Source: a phage. Taken from it: a stretch of DNA of 64,000 nucleotides. Below the pieces are notes generated by a model, which had not been told where the DNA came from, made no database searches, and worked only from the letters and a program-made list of their open reading frames with translations. Positions 3,233 to 59,662 of this stretch are shown piece after piece. The stretch lies in the NCBI GenBank assembly GCA_012549035.1, contig GCA_012549035.1_4805.1, one strand, 5' to 3'. A program made the translations under genes and the position numbers. Position 1 is the first letter of the stretch. Every line of letters starts with the position of its first letter.

Positions 3233-3235
3233 AGT

Positions 3236-3652: not shown

Positions 3653-3653
3653 T

Positions 3654-5244: not shown

Positions 5245-5246
5245 GT

Positions 5247-5513: not shown

Positions 5514-5869
5514 TATTGATTACTCACCTTTATACGTTCGCCATAAATAGTCACCACTTCTGCAGTGAATCCAAGGATACCGTTTTGGATGGTGACAGTC
5601 AATGAGTCGATTCCGGCAACGTCTGCTTTCTTCAGAATAGCATCTGCAATCGACTTTCGCGCACCGTCTTCGTCAACGGGCGACTTGAAAACGGTCCCCA
5701 AATAATCGACCCCGTTTTCTATATCGTACAAGTCTTCACCAAGTCGCATCTGATGCGCGGCCTTGATTACTTGCACCATCGCTTTTTCTCCTGAAAGAAT
5801 ATTTAAGTTTCTTCCATCAGGTAGAAAAAGGTCATTATTTTCGTTCACTTCAATGGTTAGAGTTGTCAA
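5513..5869 (-). CDS. hypothetical tail protein (118 aa)
   Basis: ORF in tail module, overlapping start/stop. Confidence 0.5.
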   Translation of the reverse strand: MTTLTIEVNENNDLFLPDGRNLNILSGEKAMVQVIKAAHQMRLGEDLYDIENGVDYLGTVFKSPVDEDGARKSIADAILKKADVAGIDSLTVTIQNGILGFTAEVVTIYGERIKVSNQ

Positions 5870-38057: not shown

Positions 38058-38705
38058 TTATCCTGTGGCCTGCATATTGCGTACATACTTCTGCTCTAAT
38101 GAATAGATGAAGTCGGCGACAGTCAATCCCTTCGTGTGCCATTCATACATGGTGAAGCCTGTATTCAGGAAATAGCCGCGCACCTTGTCCATCGCTTCAG
38201 CTTCCTCCATTGAAGCCATCAGCGCGGCGACGTTGTCATAAGAAGGCACAAATCCCTTCTTGCGTAGCGCATTGCGCAAATCTTTAGTTCTGAAGCCAAT
38301 CTTGCAAGGGTCATCGCGGCCCGTGGATGATGCAACCTTTGGAAGAGCAAGGAACTCTTTGAGGAACATTGCAATGTTCAAGTCGCCTGCATCATCAAGC
38401 TTCTGGATTCGGTTGCGACCGCGACCCTTGAATTCACTCGCACGAGGGTGAGCGCCAAAACAGTGCGCCCCTTCCAGTTTAGGGTCAATGATCATCACAT
38501 CTTTCCCAATGCGCAGCTCTACGTAGTAAAGATAAGACTCATCGACAAGCTTTGTGCGCTTGCAAGTGATTGAGTCCTTATCATAACCAAAGCCGCGCAA
38601 CACGGTTGAGATCATTCGGTTCATTTCTTCGCCGTGAACGTCACTTTCTTTGTTCAGTTCACCAAGATGTTGAAAGAATTTAGCGATGTTGATTGCTTTA
38701 TTCAT
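38058..38705 (-). CDS. hypothetical protein (215 aa)
   Basis: 1-nt overlap with helicase gene stop. Confidence 0.55.
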   Translation of the reverse strand: MNKAINIAKFFQHLGELNKESDVHGEEMNRMISTVLRGFGYDKDSITCKRTKLVDESYLYYVELRIGKDVMIIDPKLEGAHCFGAHPRASEFKGRGRNRIQKLDDAGDLNIAMFLKEFLALPKVASSTGRDDPCKIGFRTKDLRNALRKKGFVPSYDNVAALMASMEEAEAMDKVRGYFLNTGFTMYEWHTKGLTVADFIYSLEQKYVRNMQATG

Positions 38706-40375
38706 CAGAATTCATCCTTATCTCTTCCCAAAGAACGTTTACGCTCAATAACCTTCTTCAAGAATTCAATATCTTCAGGGTCAGACTCATCGCGGATAAG
38801 ATACGCTAAGATGGTCATCAAATCAGAAATGTATTCTCCTGCTTCATTCTTAATCAGCGGCGTAAAGTACCCGCGCTGGTTGCGATAGGTTGCAGGCTCA
38901 AAACCAAGCTTCGACATGTGCGGCGCAAGGGTACGAGAGAAAGGCGACTTGCCACACTTCGCTCTGAATCCCATAGCAATAGCGCCACTGGTGATGTGCC
39001 AGCGTCCGCTGTGATGTCGGTCATAAGGCGCGGTGATGACGACTTCAACAAGGTCGTTGTCGACCATCTCATCACGGATAACGCCGCGCGCACGTTCCAT
39101 TTCGTTCTTGCTGAACTCAGTAAGCATGCGAGATGTTTCACCAACAAACGCGTTATAGCCTGCTTCGCCGTGCTTCTCCATCCACGCAGCGCACTCAGCC
39201 ATAAGCTGCCAAACGTCTTCTTTCAAAGTGGAAAGGTCGGCTTGGAAGTCCTTAGACCAGTTCGGTTGCCCGTCCTTGTCAGCGAGTTGGCCAACAAAGA
39301 TAGGGTACACACGACGGTTGCCCGTGTCGTCACGCTGCATGCCTGCGTATTCGTTGCCGTCCATGATCGCAATCCACTGGCGTGGTTTAACCTGCGTATC
39401 TTCAAATTTGAAGTCCAGGTCATCTTCCGTCTTAGTCAGGAATGCTTTCATGTTTTCGATGTCGGCCTTTTTAAAGCCTGTCATCTCGCCAACGTTCGCG
39501 ATAATTGAGCGACCCGTGATAGCTCGCAAGAACGGGTTGAAGTTTTGCGCGGCTAAGTTCAACGGAATCGGTGTTGCGTGGCGGTCGTTCATAATAGCTT
39601 CGCAAAGCAGCTTGCTAAAATAACTCTTCCCTGCGTTCTGGCCGCCGATGAGCGCAATGGAGATTGGCGCTTGACAGCCAGGGTTGGTCAGGCGGTTGTA
39701 GAGCGATAGCCAAAAATACACACCGATTTGTCGGTTTAACTCTGTATCGAACGGTCGGAATAGCTCGATAAGGTATTTCTCGATGCGCGCAGTACCGTCC
39801 CATTCAGGCAGCTTCTTGTAGAAGAAGTCCATCAGGTCGTCGCGCTGATAACGCATGGCCCATTCCTTATAGGATTGAGCGACCTGACGTGAGTTTGGGT
39901 TGGACAACCCTGCTGCGTCGACAGCGGCAACTATCTCTGTGACTTCCAAGGTACGGTCAGTGAATGTTTCGCCGCGATGGTCGACTAAGCGCCCACGAAA
40001 AGTATCTTTGTGAGGGAATGGAACAACGCCACTTCCCTTATCAAACAACGCGTCGAACACCGCATAACGGTTCATGTCACTCGTCCGGTCTGCCTGTAGA
40101 ACGAAGTCATCTTTAGTCGGCTTGTAGTGAGGGAACTTGATTACCTGAAGTGAGGCGAGCAAGCGTGCTCTTTCAACCAAGTCTTCTTCACCGTAGCATT
40201 CCATGCGCTCTGAATCTTTTTCAACGGCTTTATGTTGAAGGCTGATTTTAGCTCTGGTGCCTTGCTGCTCTGCTGCCTGCATTTCTTCCGAAACACCTGC
40301 ATCTTGAATTTCGTCAAAGATTGCACCAAATTCATCACCTGTATCCTCTGGAAGATTGTCATTATTAATTGACAT
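38705..40375 (-). CDS. SF3-type NTPase / helicase (VirE / D5-like primase-associated)
   Basis: 556 aa; Walker A IALIGGQNAGKS and downstream architecture typical of phage/plasmid primase C-terminal helicase domains. Confidence 0.7.
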   Translation of the reverse strand: MSINNDNLPEDTGDEFGAIFDEIQDAGVSEEMQAAEQQGTRAKISLQHKAVEKDSERMECYGEEDLVERARLLASLQVIKFPHYKPTKDDFVLQADRTSDMNRYAVFDALFDKGSGVVPFPHKDTFRGRLVDHRGETFTDRTLEVTEIVAAVDAAGLSNPNSRQVAQSYKEWAMRYQRDDLMDFFYKKLPEWDGTARIEKYLIELFRPFDTELNRQIGVYFWLSLYNRLTNPGCQAPISIALIGGQNAGKSYFSKLLCEAIMNDRHATPIPLNLAAQNFNPFLRAITGRSIIANVGEMTGFKKADIENMKAFLTKTEDDLDFKFEDTQVKPRQWIAIMDGNEYAGMQRDDTGNRRVYPIFVGQLADKDGQPNWSKDFQADLSTLKEDVWQLMAECAAWMEKHGEAGYNAFVGETSRMLTEFSKNEMERARGVIRDEMVDNDLVEVVITAPYDRHHSGRWHITSGAIAMGFRAKCGKSPFSRTLAPHMSKLGFEPATYRNQRGYFTPLIKNEAGEYISDLMTILAYLIRDESDPEDIEFLKKVIERKRSLGRDKDEF

Positions 40376-41686: not shown

Positions 41687-42769
41687 CTATTTTATGCCAC
41701 CTGCACGACGATTTATCATGTCAAGTTGATTCTCAATATAAGGCATGACGATTGCTTCAACAAAAGCAGTCCAACCTTTCTTGCCTTCCCCTTTCCGGTG
41801 ACAGTCGTGGGCGCAACCGAACACAAATTCATGTTCTGCACCAGGGATAGGGCCGCGAAAGTAAGCGCCATACGGGTCGCCGTTGGTGTGCTCTTCACCC
41901 CAAGGACAGATTATGCGGCACTTGCCTGACATATTCTCGATGACGTCGCCATCAGACCCTTCACCCATCTTGTTGCGCGCTAGAATTTGCTGGGCTATTT
42001 TATACCAAACGGCATCATACTTGTATTCATCGACGTCAATTTGAATCTCACGCTTTTGCGGCATGACGACGTGAAAGCCAAATGCCTGACAAATGTCTTC
42101 GATGGTGTAGCGCAAGGAGTAGTCTGCATGGACAAGTCGGCAGCGGAACGGGTCGCCGTTCTCATCGACATATTTATAGGGGCCGTCGTGAGTCACACGC
42201 TTGTTATTGATGCACCCAGGAACACGGCCCACGCGCGTTACGTCTTTAATCGTGTTGTCGCCGCCCTTCTTGAGTACCATGTTAACGAAAGACCCAAGGA
42301 ACGCTTTGAACTGAATAAGATGGTCAATCGGTTCTTTAAAGAAGTACCAAAGCTGGTGGTTGTTCGGTGAAGTCTCGACGATGACAGTCGGCTTCAGTCG
42401 CTCAAAAAAGAATTCCAAATCTAAATCGCCTTTGGACCCTTTACCGTGACCGATGTCGTCGACCATCATCGCCATACCGTGACCAAAGGCCGACTCTGTA
42501 CGCCAGTATCGCATCTCACCCGTCTTTGGGTTGGGAGACTTACGCATTGAACTGATGCAAGCATAGCCGTTTTGGTGCTGCATGAGCGGCTTGCCCAACT
42601 TCCAAGGCTTAGGCCAGAAGCTGCTGTTAATCTTCTTGCCGCGCTCGTCAGTCTGCACCGTTGCTTCAGGAGCAAACACCGTCATGACGCGCTCATCTTC
42701 TGGGATGCCTCTTTGGAGTTCTGTTAAAAACTCTTCAATTATTTTTGCTTCTTCTCTTAAACTAGCCAT
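41687..42769 (-). CDS. putative DNA primase (primase-polymerase-like) with C-terminal zinc-binding motif
   Basis: 360 aa; motif VETSPNNHQLWYFF resembles the sGxGxH motif of archaeo-eukaryotic-type primases; C-terminal C/H cluster; upstream of SF3 helicase. Confidence 0.5.
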   Translation of the reverse strand: MASLREEAKIIEEFLTELQRGIPEDERVMTVFAPEATVQTDERGKKINSSFWPKPWKLGKPLMQHQNGYACISSMRKSPNPKTGEMRYWRTESAFGHGMAMMVDDIGHGKGSKGDLDLEFFFERLKPTVIVETSPNNHQLWYFFKEPIDHLIQFKAFLGSFVNMVLKKGGDNTIKDVTRVGRVPGCINNKRVTHDGPYKYVDENGDPFRCRLVHADYSLRYTIEDICQAFGFHVVMPQKREIQIDVDEYKYDAVWYKIAQQILARNKMGEGSDGDVIENMSGKCRIICPWGEEHTNGDPYGAYFRGPIPGAEHEFVFGCAHDCHRKGEGKKGWTAFVEAIVMPYIENQLDMINRRAGGIK

Positions 42770-42929: not shown

Positions 42930-43256
42930 ATGAACGAAAAAGAGACGAAGCAACGCGAACGTGCAACACACGTCGGAATCGTTGAGTCCTTCCTTAATAC
43001 AAGATTGAATTCAAGCCTAACAATCATGCGATTCCTGGGTCAACCAGACAGAATCAAATTTATTTTTGCCGCAAATCCGGTATCGCTGTACATCCCTGTT
43101 GAATCCATGGCGTACTTAGTGCGCGACGAGAAAGGATGGAAGATACCAAACACAACTGTTTTCTTCAGCCATGTTGATGGTGAGATGTTTGAACGAAAAG
43201 AAGATTGCCATTTTATTCCAGTATATCTGGACCTTGAAAGCGTAGTGGAGTTATAA
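42930..43256 (+). CDS. hypothetical protein (108 aa)
   Basis: First gene of plus-strand replication module. Confidence 0.55.
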   Translation: MNEKETKQRERATHVGIVESFLNTRLNSSLTIMRFLGQPDRIKFIFAANPVSLYIPVESMAYLVRDEKGWKIPNTTVFFSHVDGEMFERKEDCHFIPVYLDLESVVEL

Positions 43257-44440
43257 TGAACATTCCAGAATTTAATGATGAGCCAGTGATTCAGTTTAAC
43301 GCGCAACAAATCGACGCCATCGAGAAAGCCGTTGCATGGTACAAGCGATTGCAGGACGGTAAAACGACGAAGCGCGTGTTTTTCATCGCTGGCTATGCAG
43401 GAACTGGTAAAACCTCTATTGCTCGCGAGATTGTGCGCCGTTGTGTCGGTGAGTATGGAGCTATCTATATTGCGCCGACCGGAAAGGCTGCAAGCCGATT
43501 AAAGCAAAAAGGCTGTCGTGGCGCTAAGACCCTTCACCAGTTCATCTATAACGTGCGCGGCGTAAATGACGACAATGAGCCAATCTTTTCGAGAAAGTCA
43601 AAGCTGGATGAAAGGCCGCACCTTGTTGTACTCGATGAAGCGTCGATGGTTGGCGAGTGGGACACAGAGCGCCTTCTTGATCACCGCATCCCTGTCCTGG
43701 CATTAGGCGACATTGGACAAGTCCCTCCGGTAAAAGCCGCCGCCTACTTTACTGAAGATGCCGTTGACGTACTGTTAACAGAAATCATGCGGCAAGGGAA
43801 AGAGTCCAATATAATCCGCGCCTCCTTCTTCGTGCGCCAAGGCAACCGCCTTCCTCCGCGTGAATACGATGACGTCAAAGTATTGGCAGAATCGCCGCGC
43901 GTTACTGCATTGAAGAAATTCATGGGCGAAGATGATCAAATTATTTGCTCCTATAATAGCACCAAAGATAAATGGAATTCATTATTACGGCAAGTGAGCG
44001 GACGTATAACGCCAATGCCAGGAATCGGCGAGAAAGTTATTTGCACCTTCAACCAGCACGGGCCAGGATTCTGTAATGGCGAGCAAGGGATTGTTATTAG
44101 CTATGAGCCAGTGCCGGACTTTGAAAGGGATGAAGATGAGTCGAATGAAATAATGTATGTCAACTTGCGTTCATTGACTGATGGTAAAGATATAAAGGTA
44201 AAGATTAATCCTCTTTCCTTCTCTACTGATCAGGAAGTGCGCAAAGAAGCGCAACGTGCTGTTGGCGGGATGGACTACGGCTATGTCATCACGGTGCACA
44301 AATCGCAAGGCAGCGAGTGGGACAATGTGTGCGTGCTGGAAGAAATCTTGCGCGGCGTTCCGTACTCCAAGATGATGTACACCGCTATCACCCGTGCTAA
44401 GAAGAATCTGACCGTGTACCGTGATTTGAAAGCGCGTTAA
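43256..44440 (+). CDS. SF1 DNA helicase (Dda / RecD-like)
   Basis: 394 aa; Walker A FIAGYAGTGKTS, DEAS box VVLDEASMV, and C-terminal ITVHKSQGSEWD motif. Confidence 0.75.
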   Translation: MNIPEFNDEPVIQFNAQQIDAIEKAVAWYKRLQDGKTTKRVFFIAGYAGTGKTSIAREIVRRCVGEYGAIYIAPTGKAASRLKQKGCRGAKTLHQFIYNVRGVNDDNEPIFSRKSKLDERPHLVVLDEASMVGEWDTERLLDHRIPVLALGDIGQVPPVKAAAYFTEDAVDVLLTEIMRQGKESNIIRASFFVRQGNRLPPREYDDVKVLAESPRVTALKKFMGEDDQIICSYNSTKDKWNSLLRQVSGRITPMPGIGEKVICTFNQHGPGFCNGEQGIVISYEPVPDFERDEDESNEIMYVNLRSLTDGKDIKVKINPLSFSTDQEVRKEAQRAVGGMDYGYVITVHKSQGSEWDNVCVLEEILRGVPYSKMMYTAITRAKKNLTVYRDLKAR

Positions 44441-49614: not shown

Positions 49615-50166
49615 ATGCCACATTTTAAAATTGAACAAATCGCCCTGTCAATTCCAGATGCTCAGCGCGCACAGGATTTCTTGGCTAAAATCGGCCTGAC
49701 AGAATGGTTCCATGATCATGTTGTTGCTACTGGTCGCGTATTTGAAGCTGATGACTTTAAAGGTCGTCGCGACGATTGCACCAATGAAGCTGACTTGCGC
49801 TTCAACTATCAGGCTGGCAACGGTACTGATGGTGGCGCTGGTAAGCCTCTTGAGCTTGAAATCCTTGACTACACAATGGGCTGCAACTGGATTAACGAAA
49901 ACATCGAATATATCGATGCGCATGACAATCAGGTCAGCCATCTTGGCATGCACGTAACTGCCGCTGAACTTGCTGAATGGCGTAAGTTCTTTAGCGAAGA
50001 AGGCATTCAGGTTGCACAGGAAGTTGTAACTGACTCTCATACCAACCCGAACATTGCTGGTCAACGTCGTTACAACTATGTGATCTTTGATACGCGTGAA
50101 ATCATCGGTGTTGATTTGAAGTTTATCGTGCGCTTGAATCAAGACGGTACTCCGTACACTGTATAA
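49615..50166 (+). CDS. hypothetical protein (183 aa), possibly VOC/glyoxalase-like
   Basis: ORF with good context; fold assignment speculative. Confidence 0.5.
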   Translation: MPHFKIEQIALSIPDAQRAQDFLAKIGLTEWFHDHVVATGRVFEADDFKGRRDDCTNEADLRFNYQAGNGTDGGAGKPLELEILDYTMGCNWINENIEYIDAHDNQVSHLGMHVTAAELAEWRKFFSEEGIQVAQEVVTDSHTNPNIAGQRRYNYVIFDTREIIGVDLKFIVRLNQDGTPYTV

Positions 50167-50220
50167 CGAATCGTGAATCTGTGGCCGTCCTAATGGGCGG
50201 CCTTTTTGTAGGAGGCCAAT

Positions 50221-50763
50221 GTGTTATTTCTCCCTTATGACTTCGAAACAACCGGATTAACCGTGCACCCGAAAGCGCCGCTTGGAATGCAGCCGCGCCC
50301 TATTGAATTTGCAGGCTTGCTGACAGACGGCAAAGAGATTCTTGAAACGTTTGAATTCATAATTAATCCTGAAATCGTGATCGAAGAAATCATCACAAAG
50401 ATTACCGGATTAACAAATGAAGACCTTGAGTGCAATCCACCGTTCATCAATTTCGTCCCGCAGCTAAAAGAAATCCTCAAGAAGACTGATGCAACTATCG
50501 CGCACAACCATGCGTTCGATAAAAACATTCTTGATTATGCACTACAGCGCGAAGGACTTACGCTTGATGATGTTAATTTTCCAGAAATAAACATATGTAC
50601 AGTTGAGCAAACCTTGCCTATTTTTGGCCGAAGAGTTAAGCTTCAAGAGCTGTATGAATTATATTTCGGAAAATATGAACAGAAGCACCGTGCATTAGAC
50701 GACGTAATATTACTGCACAAAGTCTGCCAACAAATTGGCGTATATGACATCTGGAGTAAATAA
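50221..50763 (+). CDS. DnaQ-like 3'-5' exonuclease (DEDDh)
   Basis: Exo I YDFETTGL, Exo II HNHAFDKNIL, Exo III HRALDD motifs. Confidence 0.7.
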   Translation: MLFLPYDFETTGLTVHPKAPLGMQPRPIEFAGLLTDGKEILETFEFIINPEIVIEEIITKITGLTNEDLECNPPFINFVPQLKEILKKTDATIAHNHAFDKNILDYALQREGLTLDDVNFPEINICTVEQTLPIFGRRVKLQELYELYFGKYEQKHRALDDVILLHKVCQQIGVYDIWSK

Positions 50764-53660
50764 TGTTTCCACAATTGAGAGTTCGCAGCGGTTACACGTT
50801 CAAAGAAGTTTATGGACGGCATCCTGAAATTATAGCACGGCTCAAAGAGTTGGGCTGCGAAGTCGCGGCATTAGTTGATAACAACACATGGGGTCACGTT
50901 CGCTGGGAAAAGGAATGCCAGAAAAATGATATTAAGCCTATGTTTGGAATGGAGATTCCAATCATCGACCCTGATGCGGACCCTAAAAAGGGATTCAAAC
51001 CGAAGGCTTGGATATTGGCCCTTGACTTAAAATCTTTTTACAACGCTACAACACTTTCAACGCAGCGCGGTGGACTTACCCGTTCAGAGTTCGGTGCGCT
51101 CGATGGCGTCGTTAAATTCTGTGGCGGTGCCGTGGAGTTGCTGCGGCCAGAGGACTACGACTATATAGACGTCAACCCATCATCGTTCCTTTTGGCAAAG
51201 CGCCAGGCATTGGCTCATCGTAGCAGTGGAAGGCCGCTGGTTTTAACCGGATACAACCACATGCCTTCACCTGAGCACGTTGACTTTGCTTATGCGTGGG
51301 AAGTGCGCGACACGGTCAAGCCGCACTGCATCGTTGACGCGGAAGACTTGCGCAAACAGCTTAAAGGCATCTTGACTGAAGATGAGCTCAATCAGGCAAC
51401 GGCCAATGCTGTTGACATAGCAAACGGCATAGTCGGACTTGACCTGAAATTACGCAAGGCACCGATTATTCACCTTGCTGGTGACATGGTAAAGCTTGCT
51501 CGCGAGGGTATGGAGTACCGTCTAAAAGCAGGTCACATCAAAGAATGGACTCAGGAATACGAGGACCGCTTCAACGAAGAAATTCACCAGATTCAGCTGA
51601 AAGATTTCGACTCATACTTTCTGGTGGTAGCGGACCTTGTACGATTCGCAAAAACAAAAATGCTCGTCGGTCCTGCGCGCGGCTCATCGGCTGGTTCACT
51701 TGTTTGCTATTGCCTCGGCATCACGGAAGTGGACCCAATCCCGTATAAGCTGCTGTTTGCCCGATTCATCGACGTAAGCCGCGCCGACCTTCCTGACATC
51801 GACATCGACTTTGAAGATACCAAACGCTATATGGTGTTTGATTATCTTAAAGAGAAATACGGCGAAATGAACGTTGCAAAGCTTGGCAACATCAACACGC
51901 TTAAGGCCAACTCAGTAATGGCTCAAGTTGGTAAGAAGTTCAACATTGGATACCACGAAACAGCCAACATTAAAAACGCACTGCTTGAATACTCATCCGG
52001 TGACGCCCGTTATGGTCACGGCCTGGAGGATACCTTTGCAACAACGACCACGGGTCAAGAGTTCGTGGCTAAATATCCCGATGCCGCGCGATGCATGGGT
52101 GACCTTGAGATTCACCCTTCCCACACTGGCGTTCACGCAGCGGGAATCATCGTGTGTAATGACCCAATCTCTGATTACTGTACTGTAACTGCAGAAGGGA
52201 TTGCGCAAATCGATAAGCCTGACAGCGAATACCTCAACCTTTTGAAGCTTGATGCACTGGGCCTTCGTACTCTCGGCATCATTTCTGATACAGGCGTCAT
52301 TGATGCTGAAACGCTGTACGGAATCAAGCTTGATGATCAAAGTGTCCTTGACATTCTTAATGAAAACAAAATGTCAGGCATCTTCCAGTTTGAAGGTGAT
52401 GCTGTACGCTCAGTAACAAACTTTGTGCACGTCGATAACTTTAACAAAATCGACAACCTGACGGCGTTGGGTCGACCTGGACCATTGTCATCCGGTATGG
52501 CCCAGAAATACATTGAACGCGCGGCAGGGCGTGCGCCGATTGAGTACGACGTGCCGCAGCTTGAGCCGTACTTGAAAGAGACTTACGGCGTGTTTCTTTA
52601 CCAAGAGCAAATCATGGCCGTGGTTAAAGAGATTGGTTCATTTGACTGGGCGAAAACATCCGCTGTACGTAAGGCGATGTCAGGCCGTAAGGGTGAGGAA
52701 TACTTTAACAAGCTTGGCGAAGACTTCGTTGCAGGCGCAATAAATAATGGCGTGCCGGAAGCGGATGCAAGAAAGCTTTGGCAGGCGATGGCGACGTTCG
52801 GGTCATGGGGCTTTAACAAGTCACACTCCGTGTCATACGCGGTCGTGACCTACTGGACCTTGTGGCTTAAACGACACTACCCGTTGGAATTTGCCGCTGC
52901 TTGCTTACGCGCTGCTAAGGACGAAGACCAGACGATTGCGATATTACGTGAACTTGCGAAGGAAGGCGTGGATTATGTGCCAATCGATCCTGATCACTCT
53001 TCAATGAACTGGACCATCGCTAACGGAAAGCTAATCGGCGGCATCATGAACGCTAAAGGGTACGGAATGGTGAAGGCGATGAAGTACATCGAAGCACGTG
53101 AAGCCGGAACCTTAACGCAAAAGCAGAAGGATGCATTGGCCAATGCTGAAGTCAAATACGGCGACCTTACAGAGATGCACACCAAGTTCGGCTGGGCATA
53201 TAATGACCCATATCTTATTGGCGTCACTTCCGGCGCTTCAATACGCCAGATGAAGGAAGTAGGCGATGATGAGCGTGCAATAGTAATCGGCAAGTTGACA
53301 AAGAAAGTGCTTGCGGACGAGAATGAAGCAACACGCATCCGTAAACGACTTGAGCGCGGCATCTATACAAAGCACGGCAAGCTTAAAAAGGGTCTTCAAG
53401 CTGATGGCCGCTACGCAGAGTTTGACCAGTACGGGAACAAGCTTGAGACTCAGTTCATCGACCTTATGTGCAAAGACGACTCGACCGACTCGCCAATGCG
53501 ATTCAGGATTCGTCCAGAGAAGTTCCAGAAGTACGGGAAGTACATCGCTGAAAACGTCGGGAACGGCGCATTCTTCCTGATGAAAGGTCGTAAGCTTGAA
53601 GGCATTGACATGTTCATTGTTGACGTGATCAAACAGGTGTACCCAGATGGCAACAAATAA
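50763..53660 (+). CDS. DnaE-type DNA polymerase III alpha-like catalytic subunit
   Basis: 965 aa; N-terminal PHP-like start and PDIDIDF polymerase active-site motif. Confidence 0.75.
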   Translation: MFPQLRVRSGYTFKEVYGRHPEIIARLKELGCEVAALVDNNTWGHVRWEKECQKNDIKPMFGMEIPIIDPDADPKKGFKPKAWILALDLKSFYNATTLSTQRGGLTRSEFGALDGVVKFCGGAVELLRPEDYDYIDVNPSSFLLAKRQALAHRSSGRPLVLTGYNHMPSPEHVDFAYAWEVRDTVKPHCIVDAEDLRKQLKGILTEDELNQATANAVDIANGIVGLDLKLRKAPIIHLAGDMVKLAREGMEYRLKAGHIKEWTQEYEDRFNEEIHQIQLKDFDSYFLVVADLVRFAKTKMLVGPARGSSAGSLVCYCLGITEVDPIPYKLLFARFIDVSRADLPDIDIDFEDTKRYMVFDYLKEKYGEMNVAKLGNINTLKANSVMAQVGKKFNIGYHETANIKNALLEYSSGDARYGHGLEDTFATTTTGQEFVAKYPDAARCMGDLEIHPSHTGVHAAGIIVCNDPISDYCTVTAEGIAQIDKPDSEYLNLLKLDALGLRTLGIISDTGVIDAETLYGIKLDDQSVLDILNENKMSGIFQFEGDAVRSVTNFVHVDNFNKIDNLTALGRPGPLSSGMAQKYIERAAGRAPIEYDVPQLEPYLKETYGVFLYQEQIMAVVKEIGSFDWAKTSAVRKAMSGRKGEEYFNKLGEDFVAGAINNGVPEADARKLWQAMATFGSWGFNKSHSVSYAVVTYWTLWLKRHYPLEFAAACLRAAKDEDQTIAILRELAKEGVDYVPIDPDHSSMNWTIANGKLIGGIMNAKGYGMVKAMKYIEAREAGTLTQKQKDALANAEVKYGDLTEMHTKFGWAYNDPYLIGVTSGASIRQMKEVGDDERAIVIGKLTKKVLADENEATRIRKRLERGIYTKHGKLKKGLQADGRYAEFDQYGNKLETQFIDLMCKDDSTDSPMRFRIRPEKFQKYGKYIAENVGNGAFFLMKGRKLEGIDMFIVDVIKQVYPDGNK

Positions 53661-54069
53661 CCGTGAGCAGAAATACATATTCGTCCCATTGAAGAAGCAT
53701 TCGGAATCAATATTGAAGCTTCAACGAATCGAGTCAATGACGGGCGATGGCGTGCCGGACGTAATCGGCACCAACCGGAAAGGGCGCGGCTTTTGGCTTG
53801 AAATGAAGTTCTTTGAATCGTGGCCTGCAAGGGCCACCACTGCACCTTTCAGAAATGCATTTGAGAAAGGCCAATGCAGCTTTCTTTCTTCGTGGAATGA
53901 TTGGAAATACCCATCATTTGTTCTGCTTAAGGTTGATTCTGAGAAGATGTTTTATTTAGTCCACCCTTCTATTGAATTAAAGCGTTATAATACTGCAGAC
54001 GTTCAACGTGAGATAATCGTGAAGGGAACTATTCATCACATCATCAAGTATTTAGAGGAATTGTCATGA
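53647..54069 (+). CDS. VRR-NUC domain nuclease
   Basis: GDGVPDVIGTNRKGRGFWLEMK matches the D...E.K nuclease core. Confidence 0.6.
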   Translation: MATNNREQKYIFVPLKKHSESILKLQRIESMTGDGVPDVIGTNRKGRGFWLEMKFFESWPARATTAPFRNAFEKGQCSFLSSWNDWKYPSFVLLKVDSEKMFYLVHPSIELKRYNTADVQREIIVKGTIHHIIKYLEELS

Positions 54070-55589
54070 AAACACAAGGAATGCGCCACCAATTATTGGC
54101 GCTTGATAAAGCAGGCCGCAGAAAATACTTTGCTTATTTCATGGAGCAGGGTCTTGGTAAAACCTGGACTGCTTTGGCAGAGTTTGAAAAGCATTTCACC
54201 GCTGGCGCATTTGACGCCATGGTTGTCATCGCTCCTAATGGTGTACACTCAAACTGGATTCGTCGTGAAGCGCCAGAGCACCTTTCCATCAAGTGGATTG
54301 GGCATTACTGGCGCGGCAATGACAAGATGAAAACTAAAAAGGGCAAAGCAATTTGGGAGAAGATGTTTGCTGATCACTATCCTGAAGGTGAAGTGCCTGC
54401 GCGCATCTTCTCATTCAACATTGACACGGTGAATACGCCAGTCGGTTATCAACACATTGAGTCCGTACTGAAGAAGTACCGCTGTTTGATGATCATTGAT
54501 GAATCGACGCGTATCAAAAATAACACAGCCAAGCGTTCCATCAAGGTTGTGGAATTGGGACGGCTGGCAAAGGCCCGTCGAATCCTTTCCGGTACGCCGC
54601 TGCCGCGCTCGCCTGCTGATATTTACATGCAGTATCACTTCCTTGAAGCTGGCTTGCTTGGCACCAAATCGTTCCGTGCATTCAATTCTGAATTCACGGT
54701 GCTGCTTGAAGCGCACGACCCAGAGATGCAGGCCATTCTCAAGAAAATCGGCGGCAACGGTTATGGCATTCCGCAAGTGCCGCGCAAAGACCAGTTTGGC
54801 CGACCGATGTATAAAAACCTTGACAAGCTTATCCGGCTGATGGAGCCGCACTATTTCCGCGCGACAAAAGCGGAATACCTGCCGGAACTTCCAGAGAAGG
54901 TGTACAAGTTTATCGACTTCGAGTTGTCGCCTAAGCAGCGCGATGTCTATGATGAACTCAAGAATGAGTACAACTATCTGATGGAGTATAAAGGCGAAGA
55001 AGAAAACGTTAAGTTTGAGATGATCGCATCTCGCACTAAGATGAAGCAGGTGACATCAGGCTTTGTTAAGGTGTATGATGAGATGGTCTACATGGAAGAT
55101 AACCCACGATTCACGGCCTTTAAGGACTATGTTGAAGGGGTGTTGGAAGATGACCCAGAGCGCAAATTCATTGTGTGGGCAATCTTTAAGGAAGAGATGA
55201 ACCAGATTAAGGATTGGCTTGAGTCTGAAGGCGTGGTCACTGGTGTGTACAACGGTGAAACGTCAAAAGAGCAGCGCGAGTTCTTGATTGATGACTTCCA
55301 GAAAAACACAGTCGAGAACGGTGGGACGCAAGTCTTAGTTTGTCACGCTGCAGCGGCAGGCATCGGAATCACGCTTACCGCCGCCGACTTGGCAATCTAT
55401 TATTCTTGCAACTATGACAACGAGTTGCGCAAGCAATCCGAAGACCGAAATCACCGCATCGGCACCAAATCAAGCGTGTTGTATGTTGATTTTATTGGGG
55501 TTGATACCATCGACGAAGAAATTCAGCGTTCATTGAGTATGAAGTCTATGCTTGCTGATCACATCCTCGACGGCAAAAAGATGAATTAA
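54066..55589 (+). CDS. SNF2-family helicase
   Basis: Walker A GLGKT, DExx box LMIIDESTR, conserved C-terminal helicase motifs. Confidence 0.75.
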   Translation: MKTQGMRHQLLALDKAGRRKYFAYFMEQGLGKTWTALAEFEKHFTAGAFDAMVVIAPNGVHSNWIRREAPEHLSIKWIGHYWRGNDKMKTKKGKAIWEKMFADHYPEGEVPARIFSFNIDTVNTPVGYQHIESVLKKYRCLMIIDESTRIKNNTAKRSIKVVELGRLAKARRILSGTPLPRSPADIYMQYHFLEAGLLGTKSFRAFNSEFTVLLEAHDPEMQAILKKIGGNGYGIPQVPRKDQFGRPMYKNLDKLIRLMEPHYFRATKAEYLPELPEKVYKFIDFELSPKQRDVYDELKNEYNYLMEYKGEEENVKFEMIASRTKMKQVTSGFVKVYDEMVYMEDNPRFTAFKDYVEGVLEDDPERKFIVWAIFKEEMNQIKDWLESEGVVTGVYNGETSKEQREFLIDDFQKNTVENGGTQVLVCHAAAAGIGITLTAADLAIYYSCNYDNELRKQSEDRNHRIGTKSSVLYVDFIGVDTIDEEIQRSLSMKSMLADHILDGKKMN

Positions 55590-55663
55590 TATCAAAAATA
55601 ATTTGACTTGTCACGGAAGATGAGTCATAATTACTTCATCGAAACGAAACAGAGGAATACAAA

Positions 55664-55927
55664 ATGGTACGCATCCTTGAACGTTACAAAAATGAAGCTA
55701 CTGGAGTAATCGCTTTCAAACGTCTTTTGGTCAAAGAAATTGACGGAATGTTCCGCGTTGTTAAAGAGTTTGATTATGGCAACGGTGCTGGGGTGAATAC
55801 CGTTATTATGCCTGGCATCAAGGCATATAAAACCTTAAAAGGCGCTGAGAAGGCTTTGGCGGCTTGGAAACCTGAACGTTATCAAATGACCCGTGTTGAA
55901 GGGCTAATGCAAGAAGGTAAAATATGA
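55664..55927 (+). CDS. hypothetical protein (87 aa)
   Basis: ORF with RBS-like GAGGAA upstream. Confidence 0.5.
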   Translation: MVRILERYKNEATGVIAFKRLLVKEIDGMFRVVKEFDYGNGAGVNTVIMPGIKAYKTLKGAEKALAAWKPERYQMTRVEGLMQEGKI

Positions 55928-56481
55928 GCAATATTAATTGGGAAGATGATTTGCCGCAGGTTGCTCCTGAGAGCATTCAAGAGCGCCTTGCGCGCTTAGT
56001 ATCTGAACTGGCAGAACGCCAAGAAGCTTTGACGGAGCTTGAAGATGAAGCTGATATGCAAAAGCAGCGCATCAGTGAAATCAAAACTGTTCTGCTTCCT
56101 GGCGTTATGGATGAGCTTGGTGTGTCTGAAATCAAGCTTGAGGACAAGACCAAAATCAAGGTCGAGTCAAAGGTGAATGCTTCAATCAAGAAAGAAAACG
56201 AATTAAAAGTTTTCGATTGGCTTGTCAACAACGGTTACGGCGGCTTGATCAAGTCCAGCGTCACGGCTGAGTTCGGTCGCGAAGAAATCGAACAGGCGCA
56301 AGAGATTGTTGCCGCGCTGCGTGAAGATGGTGTTGAAGCCACGTTGAAACAAGGCGTTCACTCTGCTACACTGAAGTCGTTTGTAAAAGAACAGCTGGAA
56401 GCGGGCAATCCAGTTAGTGAAGATATTAGCGTTTTTGAATACAAAGAAGCTAAAATAACCTTGCCTAAAAGCAAAAAGTAA
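55924..56481 (+). CDS. hypothetical acidic protein (185 aa)
   Basis: ATGA overlap with upstream gene. Confidence 0.5.
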   Translation: MSNINWEDDLPQVAPESIQERLARLVSELAERQEALTELEDEADMQKQRISEIKTVLLPGVMDELGVSEIKLEDKTKIKVESKVNASIKKENELKVFDWLVNNGYGGLIKSSVTAEFGREEIEQAQEIVAALREDGVEATLKQGVHSATLKSFVKEQLEAGNPVSEDISVFEYKEAKITLPKSKK

Positions 56482-56540
56482 TTTAACCTTTATCTTGAAA
56501 TCAGGTTGCCACGAAACTTGATACTATAGGAAAATATCAA

Positions 56541-57401
56541 ATGTCTAAGAAAGAAACTACCGAAGTTGCAGTGAAAAACACCCAGATGTCCGCTATGGCT
56601 GATTTTGTCGACATGACCGATTTTGGCGCTGGTTTTGAAGGTGCCGATGCCGATGCGTATGCCATTCCTTTTATCGTCGTACTGCAGAAGATGTCTCCTA
56701 TGGTCGACGAAGATGATCCAAAACACGTTCCTGGCGCAAAAGCTGGCATGCTTTACAACACCGTTACTGGTGAGTTGTATGACGGCAAGAAAGGCGTGCA
56801 GATCATCCCTTGCGCATTCAAACGCACCTTCATTCTTTGGGGCGGTCGCGAGTCCGACGATAAAGGCTTTAAAGGTGAATTCACCAAAGAGCACGTTGAT
56901 GCAGAAGTCGCGGCAGGCCGCGCTGTTGAGATCAACGGTAAGGTATTCGTGCCGGACGAAAACGGCAAGGTGCACGAGAAGAAATCTCCTTACTACGCAG
57001 ATACACGCAACCACTTCGTAATTCTGTTGAACGAAGAAACTGGTGAATTTGGTAGCGCAATGCTGTCTCTGACTTCTTCCATGATCAAGCCGTCTCGCAT
57101 GCTGATGACCGCTCTGCAGCAGAAGAAAGTTCAGACTCCGCAGGGTCTGAAAACGCCGCCGACCTTTATGAACATCGTTCGCATGGGTACTGCATCCCAG
57201 TCCAAAGACGGCAACACCTGGTCTGTTCTGAAGTTTGAGCTGGAAGGTCTGGTGCAGGACAAAGGCCTGTACGAAGTCGCCAAGGCATTCCACAACGACG
57301 TAGTTGGCGGTAACGTTAACATCGACCGCAGCAAGCAGGAAGAAGCAAGCGGTGCCGCTGGTCCTGTCAATGAAACTCCGACCGACGCAGAAGAGTTTTA
57401 A
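56541..57401 (+). CDS. ssDNA-binding protein-like
   Basis: 286 aa; acidic C-terminal tail ending in DAEEF (terminal Phe as in T7 gp2.5 and bacterial SSB); in replication module. Confidence 0.45.
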   Translation: MSKKETTEVAVKNTQMSAMADFVDMTDFGAGFEGADADAYAIPFIVVLQKMSPMVDEDDPKHVPGAKAGMLYNTVTGELYDGKKGVQIIPCAFKRTFILWGGRESDDKGFKGEFTKEHVDAEVAAGRAVEINGKVFVPDENGKVHEKKSPYYADTRNHFVILLNEETGEFGSAMLSLTSSMIKPSRMLMTALQQKKVQTPQGLKTPPTFMNIVRMGTASQSKDGNTWSVLKFELEGLVQDKGLYEVAKAFHNDVVGGNVNIDRSKQEEASGAAGPVNETPTDAEEF

Positions 57402-57458
57402 TCGACAATCAAATCAACAAGGCTGCCGATTGGCGGCCTTTTATTTATCTGGTGCATC

Positions 57459-57977
57459 ATGATAGAAAGAATTGTACCGCTCCTGAAGATTCTGGCCCTT
57501 GTTGGCGCGTTTGCCGCTGGATCATACGTTGAAGAACTGCAGCAAACCAACGCATCACTGGCCAAGGATAACCAATATCTGACATCGCTGAATGAGCGTA
57601 AGGACAAGATAAATGCACTCGAAGAGCAAATTGCATCTTTACAGGTTGAATCGGCATCGGCATATGAGAAAGGTCGCCAGGAAGCGCAACTGGTTGCTGA
57701 TGACACTATTGCTCGTTACAAGTCTGGGAATATCAAGCTGCGCGCGCAACTCAGCTGCTCCCGTGAGTTACTCAGGAGTGTGCCCGACTCTGCGACCACT
57801 GGACGCCTCTCTGTCCCAGAAGGAAACTGTGGACTATCAGAAGAGGATGTCAGATTTCTTGTTCAGTTCGCCGCAGAAACAAATCGATTAAAAGAGAAAG
57901 TTAATAGCTTGATTGATACTTATAATCAGGCTAAAATAAAAATCGATCAATTCAATGCATCAAAGGAAAATAAATGA
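57459..57977 (+). CDS. i-spanin (Rz-like)
   Basis: N-terminal transmembrane helix IVPLLKILALVGAFAAG then coiled-coil-prone domain; contains embedded +1 lipoprotein ORF. Confidence 0.5.
   Translation: MIERIVPLLKILALVGAFAAGSYVEELQQTNASLAKDNQYLTSLNERKDKINALEEQIASLQVESASAYEKGRQEAQLVADDTIARYKSGNIKLRAQLSCSRELLRSVPDSATTGRLSVPEGNCGLSEEDVRFLVQFAAETNRLKEKVNSLIDTYNQAKIKIDQFNASKENK
57700..57891 (+). CDS. o-spanin (Rz1-like) lipoprotein, embedded
   Basis: +1 frame ORF inside Rz-like gene; MTLLLVTSLGISSC lipobox-type signal, Pro-containing mature region. Confidence 0.45.
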   Translation: MTLLLVTSLGISSCARNSAAPVSYSGVCPTLRPLDASLSQKETVDYQKRMSDFLFSSPQKQID

Positions 57978-58597
57978 AACAGATTTATGCAAACATTCGC
58001 CAGTGGGCTTCTGACCGTAACATCATCCAAGGTTGCGACCTTAAGGACCAATACCCGAAGCTTATCAGCGAGTTCGGGGAGTTAACCGACCACGTTGATC
58101 AACTCCATGACCTTGTGTTCTTCGACCCTGAAATTGGATATACAGAGCAAGCCATCTGTGACTTGCAGGCAGCAATTAAGGACGACATCGGCGATTGCCT
58201 TGTTGTGTTGACCATCCTGGCAGCGCAAAACGGTACTGAAATCGAAAACATTAATGGCGGCGGTTGCGCTGATAAAGGTGCTCACCCTCATTCATTTATC
58301 CTTCGCCTGGCAAAGACCCTTGGACGACTTGGTGATGCAATCGCTAAGAATCAGACCATGGATATTGACGTGACCATCATGGCCGCAGCCGATTACCTTT
58401 CCGGCGTAGCTCATGATTATGGCCTTCGCTTATCCGACTGTGCGCAAGCGGCCTACGAAGACATTAAAGACCGAAAAGGTGTCATGTACAACGGCACATT
58501 CATCAAATCGACTGATCCAGCTTATGAGCACTCCTGCAAAATGGTAAAGAAGCTGGAACTTGAAGACCGTGTGATCAGAGAAGTTACAGGACAATAA
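57974..58597 (+). CDS. MazG-like nucleotide pyrophosphohydrolase
   Basis: ISEFGELTDH and DIGDCLVVL resemble MazG EExxE/D metal-binding helices. Confidence 0.5.
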   Translation: MKQIYANIRQWASDRNIIQGCDLKDQYPKLISEFGELTDHVDQLHDLVFFDPEIGYTEQAICDLQAAIKDDIGDCLVVLTILAAQNGTEIENINGGGCADKGAHPHSFILRLAKTLGRLGDAIAKNQTMDIDVTIMAAADYLSGVAHDYGLRLSDCAQAAYEDIKDRKGVMYNGTFIKSTDPAYEHSCKMVKKLELEDRVIREVTGQ

Positions 58598-58599
58598 TT

Positions 58600-59562
58600 A
58601 TGACAGCATTAAAACCAATGAAGGGTTGCCAACGTAAGCAAATAATCGAGCGCGGCGAGGACGTGCCGCTGCCTTGCGGACTGTCATTCAAGGTCGATGG
58701 CATACGTGCAATGGCGTATGACAACTTGCCAATGGGCACTTCCGGCATGCCGTTGCGCAACGTTCAAATCAAAAAAGAGTTCCTCTTCTTGGGTGAATTA
58801 ATTCACGGACTTGATGGAGAGCTAATCGACGGCAATCCGAATGACAAGAACGTCATGCAACAGGCCTATACTGCATGCATGAATACTGATGCAATCACTA
58901 ACTTTACATGGTGGGTGTTTGATGACTTCAGTGACCCTGATTTGCCTTTTGAAAAGCGTTATGCAAACTATCGAGCTAGAGTTGCTGAGGTCAATCAGCA
59001 TCTCATCAACCATGGTCGACGCCCATTCCTTCGCGCTCTCGAATATCGAAACATCGAAAATATGGAACAGTACGCGGCGATGCAAATCGAAGCAGACCAG
59101 CTTGGATATGAAGGCTTGTATGGCAAGTCTTGGACGGGCAAATACAAGCATGGCCGCGCAACGCCAAAGTCACGTGATGTATGGAAGGATAAGCCGTGGA
59201 CGGATGAAGAAGGATTGATCATAGACTTCGTTGAGATGATGGAGAACAACAACGAAGCATTCATTGACGAATTGGGTCGCACCAAGCGTTCAAAAGAGGC
59301 TGAAGGTTTAGTTGCGAAAGGATACCTTGGCTCATTTGTAGTCGTCAATCCAAAATATGTTGATGAGAAAGGTGAAATGATTCCTTTCCGCGTTTCAGCT
59401 GGTTCGATGCCTATGGCAGAGCGTAAAATGCTTTGGGAGAATCGCGAGAACTATCGCGATAAATATCTAACGTATAAATTCTTTAACTTTGGCATCGTTG
59501 ATGTGCCGCGCTCTGCTTTGTATAAATGCTTCCGTGATATTACCGATATGGAGTATTTTTAA
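58600..59562 (+). CDS. ATP-dependent DNA ligase
   Basis: Motif I LSFKVDGIR (KxDGxR adenylation lysine). Confidence 0.7.
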   Translation: MTALKPMKGCQRKQIIERGEDVPLPCGLSFKVDGIRAMAYDNLPMGTSGMPLRNVQIKKEFLFLGELIHGLDGELIDGNPNDKNVMQQAYTACMNTDAITNFTWWVFDDFSDPDLPFEKRYANYRARVAEVNQHLINHGRRPFLRALEYRNIENMEQYAAMQIEADQLGYEGLYGKSWTGKYKHGRATPKSRDVWKDKPWTDEEGLIIDFVEMMENNNEAFIDELGRTKRSKEAEGLVAKGYLGSFVVVNPKYVDEKGEMIPFRVSAGSMPMAERKMLWENRENYRDKYLTYKFFNFGIVDVPRSALYKCFRDITDMEYF

Positions 59563-59636
59563 GACACTAGATAAATAATTGGTGCGGATAATCTATCGCG
59601 TCGTTTTATAGAATTTAATATACAGTGTATACATAA

Positions 59637-59662
59637 AGCCGGAAATCTCCGGCTTTTCTTTT
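59637..59662 (+). terminator. intrinsic terminator
   Basis: AGCCGGA-aatc-TCCGGCT followed by TTTCTTTT. Confidence 0.6.

Follow-up and report, generated by a model that had tools for sequence, protein, structure and literature searches.

The segment from 50221 to 59562 of the analysed window, a 64,000-nucleotide stretch of phage DNA, is very probably the conserved block of replication and recombination genes found in Wifcevirus, E. coli myophages distantly akin to the PB1-like Pbunavirus. Over its full 9.3 kb it shares 94-97% nucleotide identity with 29 Wifcevirus genomes, and the annotation agrees. Gene content and order are identical to those of vB_Eco4M-7, WFC, ECML-117, FEC19 and BASEL Bas98-101, and no difference of substance from these phages was found in the window. 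The open reading frames listed in the initial annotation are all present at their given positions on the plus strand, with family matches far beyond chance. The block is real but ordinary within Wifcevirus, and it was already known and annotated: a 2020 paper names these functions in the gene list of vB_Eco4M-7 and ECML-117, and like the Wifcevirus records it lists a Pol III alpha subunit, a DEDDh exonuclease, helicases, a primase and an ATP ligase. The order of genes (ThyX, PNKP-like, exonuclease, DnaE, nuclease, SNF2, gp33-like, gp34-like, MazG, ligase) is shared with Pbunavirus, Carpasinavirus, Myosmarvirus, the BcepF1-like phages and Vibrio phage JSF39, and was also found in a Burkholderia phage. 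In Pbunavirus and the allied genera the hosts differ, the small intergenic ORFs vary, and the polymerase is 58-62% identical, in some cases with a coiled-coil insertion or inteins.

The block consists of two units delimited by terminator-like hairpins on the plus strand. A GC-rich hairpin followed by a T-run (50183..50202) bounds the first unit upstream, at a place homologous to that of an annotated terminator in WFC, and hairpins at 57419..57440 and 59635..59656, both annotated in WFC, close the first and second transcription units, respectively. The first unit holds the genes for the exonuclease, the polymerase, the nuclease, the SNF2 helicase, an 87-aa ORF, and the gp33-like and gp34-like proteins; the second holds those for the two spanins, the MazG-like protein and the ligase. 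The spanin pair, the 87-aa ORF and the DUF7307 (gp33-like) ORF had been overlooked in the initial annotation.

The 965-aa protein (50763..53660, plus strand) was described as a Pol III alpha-like polymerase, and judged by its sequence it is a DnaE-type C-family DNA polymerase with an intact catalytic triad. Pfam annotation assigns it DNA_pol3_alpha (3e-63), DNA_pol3_finger (1e-37) and, just above the cut-off, PHP (8e-6; 26.7 bits versus 26.4). NCBIfam TIGR00594 scores 475.8 against a cut-off of 434, PolC models score far below the DnaE models, and PHROG matches agree. The protein is 33% identical to residues 252-872 of E. coli DnaE, and among PDB sequences it matches the Taq, E. coli and M. 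tuberculosis alpha subunits at about 1e-85. The PDIDIDF motif lies at residues 344-350, and the catalytic D345, D347 and D497 correspond to D401, D403 and D555 of E. coli. The predicted domains are a degenerate PHP domain, the palm, thumb and fingers, and a lineage-specific C-terminal domain.

At the nine ligand positions of the PHP domain the phage polymerase carries R, R, E, N, E, P, G, H and P, where the canonical residues are H, H, D, H, E, H, C, D and H. One of the nine canonical ligands is thus kept, versus four in E. coli alpha, which likewise lacks a full metal site; on these residues the trinuclear metal site has been lost. Published work links loss of the PHP metal ligands with the encoding of a separate exonuclease of the epsilon type. 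Such a gene, starting with GTG, lies directly upstream (50221..50763, plus strand), as had been proposed, its stop overlapping the polymerase start by one base (TAATG). The 180-aa DnaQ/epsilon-like product is a DEDDh 3'-5' exonuclease (Pfam RNase_T 6e-22; PHROG 192 'DNA polymerase exonuclease subunit' 2e-37), in which D7, E9, D100, H156 and D161 align with the motifs of E. coli epsilon. We infer that it is the proofreading partner of the polymerase, substituting for the dead PHP domain in the way that epsilon serves E. coli alpha. The arrangement resembles the E. coli Pol III core (alpha, the DnaE product, and epsilon, the DnaQ product) in fold family, in the catalytic aspartates and in proofreading by a separate DEDDh exonuclease. 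It differs in that the phage exonuclease stops after its catalytic domain, where the C-terminal tail of epsilon would start, and so lacks both the alpha-binding segment and the clamp-binding motif. Because this tether is missing, the exonuclease would have to bind the polymerase in another way.

The polymerase had also been said to lack the long C-terminal region of cellular DnaE. A difference is indeed present, but the region is not simply absent: the last 166 residues form another, lineage-specific region, in which nothing similar to the clamp-binding, OB or tau-binding parts of cellular DnaE could be detected. In the window this domain carries a short insertion that is missing in the more distant relatives compared. 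The description of the module as self-contained is not supported, since HMM searches of the window revealed no clamp, clamp loader or canonical SSB, and none was recognised among the annotated relatives. No primer-removal nuclease or topoisomerase was recognised either, the primase and two of the helicases are encoded outside the block, and lysis genes interrupt it. Two conserved proteins of 281 and 331 aa are encoded upstream. Compared with E. coli Pol III, no theta, beta or clamp-loader genes were recognised in the phage.

These absences, together with the membership of the polymerase in the host's own polymerase family, would fit a partial toolkit, in which a viral catalytic core works within the host replisome and still needs the host beta clamp, clamp loader and SSB. 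We consider this unlikely. The region of E. coli alpha with the internal clamp-binding QADMF has no detectable counterpart in the phage polymerase, nor do the OB domain and the tau-binding C-terminal domain. A regular-expression search found no motif of the Qxx[LMIV][FLWY] type anywhere in the protein, the exonuclease lacks the corresponding motif of epsilon, and in place of DnaG/DnaB-type partners the phage encodes a non-bacterial primase and an SF3 helicase of its own. The polymerase may use the host beta clamp via a non-canonical motif. We nevertheless infer clamp independence: the polymerase would dispense with the contacts that cellular Pol III makes to the beta clamp and tau, and DNA binding or processivity would come from its lineage-specific C-terminal domain or from another partner.

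Priming and unwinding would be provided from the opposite strand, by an archaeo-eukaryotic-type (AEP, RepB-like) primase (41687..42769, minus strand; Pfam RepB_primase 4.5e-36, phrog_4861) and a VapE/D5-like SF3 helicase (38705..40375, minus strand; Pfam VapE-like_dom 1.6e-28, phrog_4630 and phrog_256), which is likely the replicative helicase. A Dda/RecD-like SF1 helicase is encoded at 43256..44440 on the plus strand (Pfam AAA_30 2e-22, UvrD_C_2 6e-13). All three genes fall outside the module as it was initially delimited.

C-family replicases are uncommon in phages, as had been stated: a match at E<=1e-10 was found in 1,376 of 50,697 phage records (2.7%), and an earlier survey counted 28 among 808 dsDNA virus genomes. 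Kazlauskas and Venclovas (2011, 2016) found these polymerases in only a small share of phages, with no clamps at this genome size. In their description the conservation of the viral proteins spans the PHP domain to the fingers, the C-terminal region is dissimilar to that of E. coli alpha (a pattern already present in the 2011 survey), and an AEP primase, an SF3 helicase and an ATP ligase accompany the bacterial-type polymerase. The window exemplifies this description, with no difference from it.

The gene that follows the polymerase (53647..54069, plus strand) encodes a 140-aa PD-(D/E)XK nuclease that resembles Holliday-junction resolvases in its fold and catalytic residues. The AF2 model (pLDDT 93.8) has the same fold as RecU, archaeal Hjc and VRR-NUC (TM 0.5-0.63), and the invariant residues E29, D38, E52-x-K54 and Q76 form the same E...D...ExK...Q constellation. 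It differs from those families in that it passes no family HMM. It had been labelled a VRR-NUC nuclease, which stands as far as resemblance to the RecU/Hjc/VRR-NUC resolvases goes; membership of VRR-NUC itself is less clear. That the protein is a bona fide VRR-NUC partnered with the SNF2 helicase, following the classic association of virus-type replication-repair nucleases, is a reading to which we give somewhat less than even chances. In line with it, the best match of the family profile to PDB sequences is the VRR-NUC nuclease 4qbo (E=0.0086, covering the GVPD...E-x-K...Q core; RecU 0.06), the target-normalised TM with 4qbn ('VRR_NUC domain') is 0.63, and the gene overlaps that of the SNF2 helicase (ATGA). 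On the other hand, the nuclease has no Pfam match, none of the 41 family members matches Pfam VRR_NUC at E<=1, and no homolog carries a precomputed Pfam domain. RecU and Hjc also precede VRR-NUC (rank 18) in the Foldseek ranking, a weak PHROG match points to Holliday-junction resolvases, and the protein exceeds minimal VRR-NUC domains by about 45 aa. The neighbouring 507-aa protein (54066..55589, plus strand) is an SNF2-family SF2 helicase/translocase, as initially annotated (Pfam SNF2-rel_dom 1e-21, Helicase_C 6e-11; GLGKT at residue 29, DEST at residue 145). Judging by fold and adjacency only, this helicase and the resolvase-like nuclease may together act, ahead of packaging, on branched or stalled intermediates of replication and recombination.

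Downstream lie, all on the plus strand, the 87-aa ORF (55664..55927; phrog_27467), the 185-aa DUF7307 or Pam3 gp33-like protein (55924..56481; Pfam 2.6e-37), whose gene always precedes the gp34-like gene, and the 286-aa Pam3_Gp34-family protein (56541..57401; Pfam 4e-86). The last had been called SSB-like; its DAEEF ending was confirmed, but it belongs to Pam3_Gp34 and has no sequence or significant structural tie to solved SSBs. If it were the phage's own ssDNA-binding protein, with the acidic Phe-ended tail docking on the polymerase or the helicase in the manner of T7 gp2.5 and E. coli SSB, the toolkit would be nearer to self-contained. The tail ends ...TPTDAEEF and that of T7 gp2.5 ...EDGDF, residues 266-286 are disordered in the AF2 model, and in 39 diverse homologs the terminal Phe is invariant, in an xAExF motif after a disordered low-complexity linker. 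A few structural neighbours in BFVD are named SSB (E=9e-5 and 2e-3), RPA and SSB chains are the weak top PDB matches, and no canonical SSB was recognised in the window. We nonetheless find this role rather doubtful. All PDB matches fall short of significance (best E=0.014, TM 0.12), no sequence or profile match ties the protein to solved SSBs or gp2.5, and it is hypothetical in every public record. The gp34-like gene of Vibrio phage phiVC8 adjoins that of a canonical E. coli-type SSB with DFDDDIPF, which makes the SSB label doubtful, and the phiVC8 homolog lacks the terminal Phe. The family is accompanied by an SNF2 helicase and DUF7307 across phages whose polymerases differ, and the SNF2-gp33-gp34 cassette is conserved also in PolA phages. 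The gp33-like/gp34-like pair may instead be an accessory linked to the SNF2 helicase, not to the type of polymerase.

The second unit opens with lysis rather than replication genes, an Rz-like i-spanin (57459..57977; phrog_1327 3e-26) and an embedded o-spanin with lipobox ISSC (57613..57891), both on the plus strand and annotated in related records. The two remaining assignments held up on PHROG matches. A MazG-like nucleotide pyrophosphohydrolase with a C-terminal extension is encoded at 57974..58597, plus strand (phrog_1992, MazG-like, 1e-61; Pfam MazG only 0.024). A 320-aa ATP-dependent DNA ligase, which would seal Okazaki fragments, is encoded at 58600..59562, plus strand (phrog_114, 2e-42; KVDG at K31; NCBIfam DNA ligase 4e-6; weak Pfam ligase domains).

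Along its entire length, the 9.3-kb region from 50221 to 59562 shares 94-97% nucleotide identity with 29 published phage genomes, among them vB_Eco4M-7, vB_EcoM_WFC, ECML-117, FEC19 and the BASEL isolates Bas98-101. The matching genomes, 66-72 kb in size, are those of Wifcevirus myophages of E. coli and Shigella. Their GenBank records name a DNA polymerase III alpha subunit, a DEDDH exonuclease or polymerase exonuclease subunit and a DNA helicase, and also carry a MazG-like pyrophosphatase, an ATP-dependent DNA ligase and an Rz-like spanin. The replication gene set of vB_Eco4M-7 and ECML-117 is given in the published paper on both phages. The gene order from ThyX to ligase is kept in Pbunavirus, Carpasinavirus, Myosmarvirus, a Burkholderia phage and the Vibrio phage JSF39, with polymerase identities of 58-62% across them, and the block represents a long-established, stable module within the PB1-like supergroup. 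The replication block is already known, both in Wifcevirus and as a general trait of viral C-family replicases, and little is added here: the genus, the genes it carries and the general characteristics of C-family polymerases in viruses have all been published. All ORFs named in the initial annotation of this region are present in their places on the + strand. What had been observed is real and has secure statistical backing, and its interpretation is partly right.

The 965-aa protein encoded at 50763-53660 (+) had been described as a Pol III alpha-like polymerase, and on this Pfam, the NCBIfam model TIGR00594 and the catalytic aspartates agree. The palm domain matches PF07733 (DNA_pol3_alpha; 3e-63) and the fingers domain PF17657 (DNA_pol3_finger; 1e-37), while the N-terminal PHP domain reaches 26.7 bits with PF02811 (cut-off 26.4), or 29.3 bits when the N-terminal fragment is used alone. 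The motif PDIDIDF spans residues 344-350; D345, D347 and D497 are conserved and align with D401, D403 and D555, the three catalytic aspartates of E. coli. Residues 208-798 are 33% identical to residues 252-872 of E. coli DnaE, and the solved alpha subunits of Taq, E. coli and M. tuberculosis are matched at about 1e-85. The protein passes the C-family superfamily model TIGR00594 (475.8 bits; cut-off 434.35) and reaches none of the NCBIfam cut-offs for cellular equivalogs, scoring 496 bits with the DnaE model NF004226 (cut-off 1002), 331 with DnaE2 and 45 with the PolC model NF001688. None of the profile searches assigned it to a non-polymerase PHP family. A DnaE2-like, error-prone role was rejected, because the genome has no other gene annotated as a DNA polymerase and the DnaE models outscore DnaE2. 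A C-family match at E<=1e-10 is contained in 1,376 of 50,697 phage records (2.7%), mostly from Pbunavirus, actinobacteriophages and Bacillus phages, and most of these are already annotated as DnaE-like. This count agrees with the survey of Kazlauskas and Venclovas (2011), in which C-family polymerases were found in 28 of 808 dsDNA virus genomes.

The polymerase had also been said to lack the long C-terminal region of cellular DnaE. That cellular region is indeed undetected, but a lineage-specific region is found there instead. It comprises the about 166-167 residues beyond the fingers domain (288 in E. coli alpha) and has no Pfam match. Its 166 C-terminal residues showed no significant similarity to residues 901-1160 of E. 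coli alpha in hhalign (probability 0.2), and a profile search of the PDB with the same residues found nothing. When 1.84 billion representative proteins were scanned exhaustively with HMMER, just 21 clusters gave a match; each full-length match checked was a phage-type DnaE, matched at its extreme C-terminus, two of them with an intein. Since this lineage-specific C-terminus has no detectable cellular similarity, the polymerase is not merely missing the cellular region. An OB fold, suggested by a DnaE OB-like pattern seen by eye, found support neither in hhalign nor in the PDB profile search. A regular-expression search found no clamp-binding motif of the Qxx[LMIV][FLWY] type anywhere in the polymerase, and the set of features expected of a cellular DnaE ortholog (a clamp-binding motif, an OB domain and a C-terminal domain that binds tau) was not detected. 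The same pattern was described for viral C-family polymerases by Kazlauskas and Venclovas (2011), with conservation from PHP to fingers and a C-terminal region unlike that of E. coli alpha; sliding clamps were absent from phages of this genome size in their study.

Past the fingers domain, relatives of the polymerase have insertions specific to their lineages. The polymerase of the Pbunavirus phage Epa14 (locus L006, 5904-9014) has one of ~70 aa with many charged residues (E, K, A, L), which looks like a coiled coil. The polymerase of the window has an insertion of its own, of ~26 aa, which falls within the C-terminal domain at about residues 880-905, and inteins are present in two metagenomic homologs (proteins P0170 and P0185).

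The nine canonical metal ligands of the PHP domain are H, H, D/H, H, E, H, C/H, D/N and H. E. coli has R10, H12, D19, F44, D69, H83, G134, D201 and R203 at these positions, and the phage polymerase has R6, R8, E15, N40, E64, P80, G122, H166 and P168, so that the ligands are lost. Comparable degeneration is seen in five relatives belonging to other genera, and position 5, with its glutamate, is the only one where a canonical ligand is kept across the group. Loss of the PHP ligands co-occurs, according to published work, with a separate epsilon-like proofreader, and the separate exonuclease and ligand-poor PHP domain encoded here are the arrangement described in that work.

The exonuclease, a 180-aa protein encoded at 50221-50763 (+), had been proposed to be a DEDDh enzyme preceding the polymerase, and motifs, profile match and gene order bear this out. 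It matches Pfam RNase_T (PF00929) at 6e-22, with 79 bits against a cut-off of 24, and D7 and E9 (Exo I), D100 (Exo II) and H156 and D161 (Exo III, of the Hx4D type typical of DEDDh) align with E. coli epsilon. These catalytic residues are invariant across six phage lineages. The stop codon of the exonuclease overlaps the start codon of the polymerase (TAATG), and the order exonuclease-polymerase is kept in all relatives examined. The protein remains far below the cut-off of all NCBIfam epsilon equivalogs. It stops at residue 180, whereas E. coli epsilon runs ~60 residues further; that C-terminal part of epsilon contains a clamp-binding motif and the segment tethering it to the PHP domain of alpha, both of which the phage protein lacks. 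The sequence QIGVY at its C-terminus was considered as a clamp-binding motif and judged a chance match, because the Tyr alone is invariant among the homologs, and of six phage sequences five have another residue in place of the Gln. We infer that the exonuclease is the proofreader and would touch the polymerase via an interface unlike that of epsilon.

The 140-aa protein encoded at 53647-54069 (+), whose gene overlaps both the stop of the polymerase and the start of the SNF2 helicase, had been labelled a VRR-NUC nuclease. This label holds only at the level of the superfamily; the Pfam VRR_NUC model (PF08774) is matched neither by the protein itself at E<=10 nor by any of 41 family members at E<=1, and RecU and Hjc rank above VRR_NUC in Foldseek. 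The protein has no Pfam match at all. A word-index search gave only 6 close relatives; the wider family came from a profile that included distant phage homologs. The residues E7, E29, D38, E52, K54 and Q76 are invariant in the family, forming a D...ExK...Q constellation. The AlphaFold2 model is confident (pLDDT 93.8), and its Foldseek matches in the PDB include RecU Holliday-junction resolvases (E about 2e-4; TM 0.58-0.60), archaeal Hjc (E 4e-4 to 4e-3; TM 0.50-0.63) and, at rank 18, the VRR_NUC domain 4qbn (E 6e-3; TM 0.63 on the target). Against PDB sequences the family profile finds the small nuclease 4qbo first (E=0.0086) and RecU second. The invariant residues and the fold matches therefore indicate a resolvase-like PD-(D/E)XK nuclease; membership of VRR-NUC proper is possible.

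In public records the nuclease is named "hypothetical" or "DNA helicase", the latter widely in GenBank and RefSeq phage records. The source of the helicase name appears to be PHROG 2165, and it looks like an annotation error spread by transfer. A homolog is found in the Achromobacter phage Axy16 (locus L007, 8944-9405), where it stands alone, without an SNF2 helicase beside it, in the PolA-based replication module of Steinhofvirus siphophages. The occurrence of the nuclease by itself in such PolA-based phages means that it is not tied to DnaE.

The SNF2 helicase (54066-55589, +) was correctly named, having an SNF2-related ATPase domain and Helicase_C with the Walker A motif GLGKT and the DExx motif DEST. 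It is followed by a DUF7307 protein (gp33-like; 55924-56481, +) and by a 286-aa protein (gp34-like; 56541-57401, +) that belongs to Pfam PF23977 (Pam3_Gp34) and is hypothetical in every source. The gp34-like protein had been called SSB-like, with a DAEEF terminus. The tail is confirmed: in 39 homologs of at least 50% identity the terminal Phe (F286) is invariant, within xAExF and behind a variable low-complexity linker, and this acidic disordered tail with an aromatic end resembles those of T7 gp2.5 (...EDGDF) and E. coli SSB. The label itself, however, is doubtful. The AlphaFold2 model has a confident beta-rich core (residues 41-260) between two disordered ends, and an OB-fold core of the SSB/gp2.5 type was detected in it neither by sequence nor by structure. 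The protein has no Pfam SSB match, sequence and profile searches of the PDB matched no solved protein, hhalign found no relation to T7 gp2.5 (probability 0.1), and Foldseek gave no significant PDB neighbour (best E=0.014; TM 0.12). Its Foldseek neighbours in BFVD are almost all uncharacterised phage proteins, a few of them labelled SSB. The genomic surroundings also speak against an SSB: the family accompanies an SNF2 helicase and DUF7307 in phages that use other polymerases, such as Yuavirus and the Vibrio phage phiVC8. Moreover, the gp34-like gene of phiVC8 is directly followed by a gene for a canonical E. coli-type SSB carrying DFDDDIPF, and the C-terminal residue of the phiVC8 homolog is not Phe. 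That the gp34-like protein is an SSB seems to us possible, with the balance leaning against it. Given a core that offers no significant link to solved SSBs, and given the genomic context, the gp33-like and gp34-like pair is treated as an accessory linked to the SNF2 helicase.

The genes occur as a cassette in the order SNF2 helicase, sometimes Pam3_gp32, DUF7307 (Pam3 gp33-like) and Pam3_Gp34, for instance at 54066-57401 in the window, at 2819-5684 in phiVC8 (locus L013) and at 2180-5822 in Epa38 (locus L014). The cassette spans polymerase families, being present in the DnaE-encoding Wifcevirus and Pbunavirus and in the PolA-encoding phiVC8, as well as in Yuavirus. It is a widespread conserved module, found also in PB1-like phages used for therapy.

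The block had been presented as a self-contained toolkit. Genes for an AEP-type RepB-like primase (41687-42769, -), a VapE/D5-like SF3 helicase (38705-40375, -), a Dda-like SF1 helicase (43256-44440, +), ThyX and a PNKP-like protein all lie outside it. Among the ~35 ORFs scanned with Pfam and PHROG and in the annotated relatives, no clamp, clamp loader, canonical SSB, RNase H/flap nuclease or topoisomerase was recognised, and self-containment is therefore not demonstrated. Phages are already known to combine a bacterial-type polymerase, an AEP primase, an SF3 helicase and an ATP ligase. Two conserved proteins without Pfam matches, of 281 aa (44594-45439, phrog_4765) and 331 aa (45574-46569, phrog_4828), are encoded in the interval that separates the Dda-like helicase from ThyX, and among them there may be a divergent processivity factor; the Epa14 homolog of the former is labelled 'TolA protein'. 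Between the PNKP-like gene and the exonuclease lie genes for a FabG-like short-chain dehydrogenase (48839-49522), kept at the same place in Xanthomonas phage XcP1 and Erwinia phage TropicalSun, and for a weakly glyoxalase-like 183-aa protein (49615-50166).

For Wifcevirus an unusually short infection cycle is reported: one study saw it finished in about 10 minutes, and another cites 3-5 minutes from adsorption to progeny release; the mechanism of this fast cycle is called unexplored in the literature. The exonuclease and polymerase could be a minimal, clamp-independent two-subunit C-family replicase that, together with a gp34-like hub, underlies the short cycle, although we consider this joint reading unlikely. 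The lineage-specific C-terminal domain would then stand in for the clamp, OB and tau apparatus, and the gp34-like protein would be a replisome hub or ssDNA-binding factor of a new kind, docking via its invariant terminal Phe. In the literature searched, no biochemical work on a C-family polymerase from a phage turned up, and a 2022 review of the DNA polymerases that phages encode has bacteria alone under family C. The compact alpha-plus-epsilon pair comes from a phage that can now be grown on an E. coli K-12 derivative with O-antigen restored and cryptic prophages removed, and it could offer a tractable model of a clamp-free C-family replicase.

Finally, of the labels of the two distal enzymes, that of the ligase is supported and that of the MazG-like protein is probably right. 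The MazG-like protein (57974-58597, +) matches phrog_1992 (1e-61) and phrog_715 (9e-30), and Pfam MazG only at E=0.024, below the cut-off. The ATP-dependent ligase (58600-59562, +) matches phrog_114 (2e-42) and has the adenylation motif I KVDG (KxDG) at K31; its Pfam nucleotidyltransferase and OB domains are present below the gathering thresholds. A sigma-70 promoter scan found 35 candidates (26 +/- 6 in shuffled sequence) and was left unused, as this is no excess. Strong terminator-like hairpins at 50183, 57419 and 59635 match terminators annotated in WFC. They bound one unit with the exonuclease, polymerase, nuclease, SNF2 helicase, an 87-aa ORF and the gp33-like and gp34-like genes, and a second with an i-spanin, the MazG-like gene and the ligase. 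The i-spanin gene (57459-57977, phrog_1327) has an o-spanin ORF (57613-57891) nested in another frame, with the lipobox ISSC at residues 40-43. This is an embedded spanin architecture, and the pair, annotated as such in Bas101, consists of lysis genes that the initial annotation had overlooked. It sits between the replication genes and MazG, ~2.6 kb away from the endolysin, which is encoded on the opposite strand (60534-61178).
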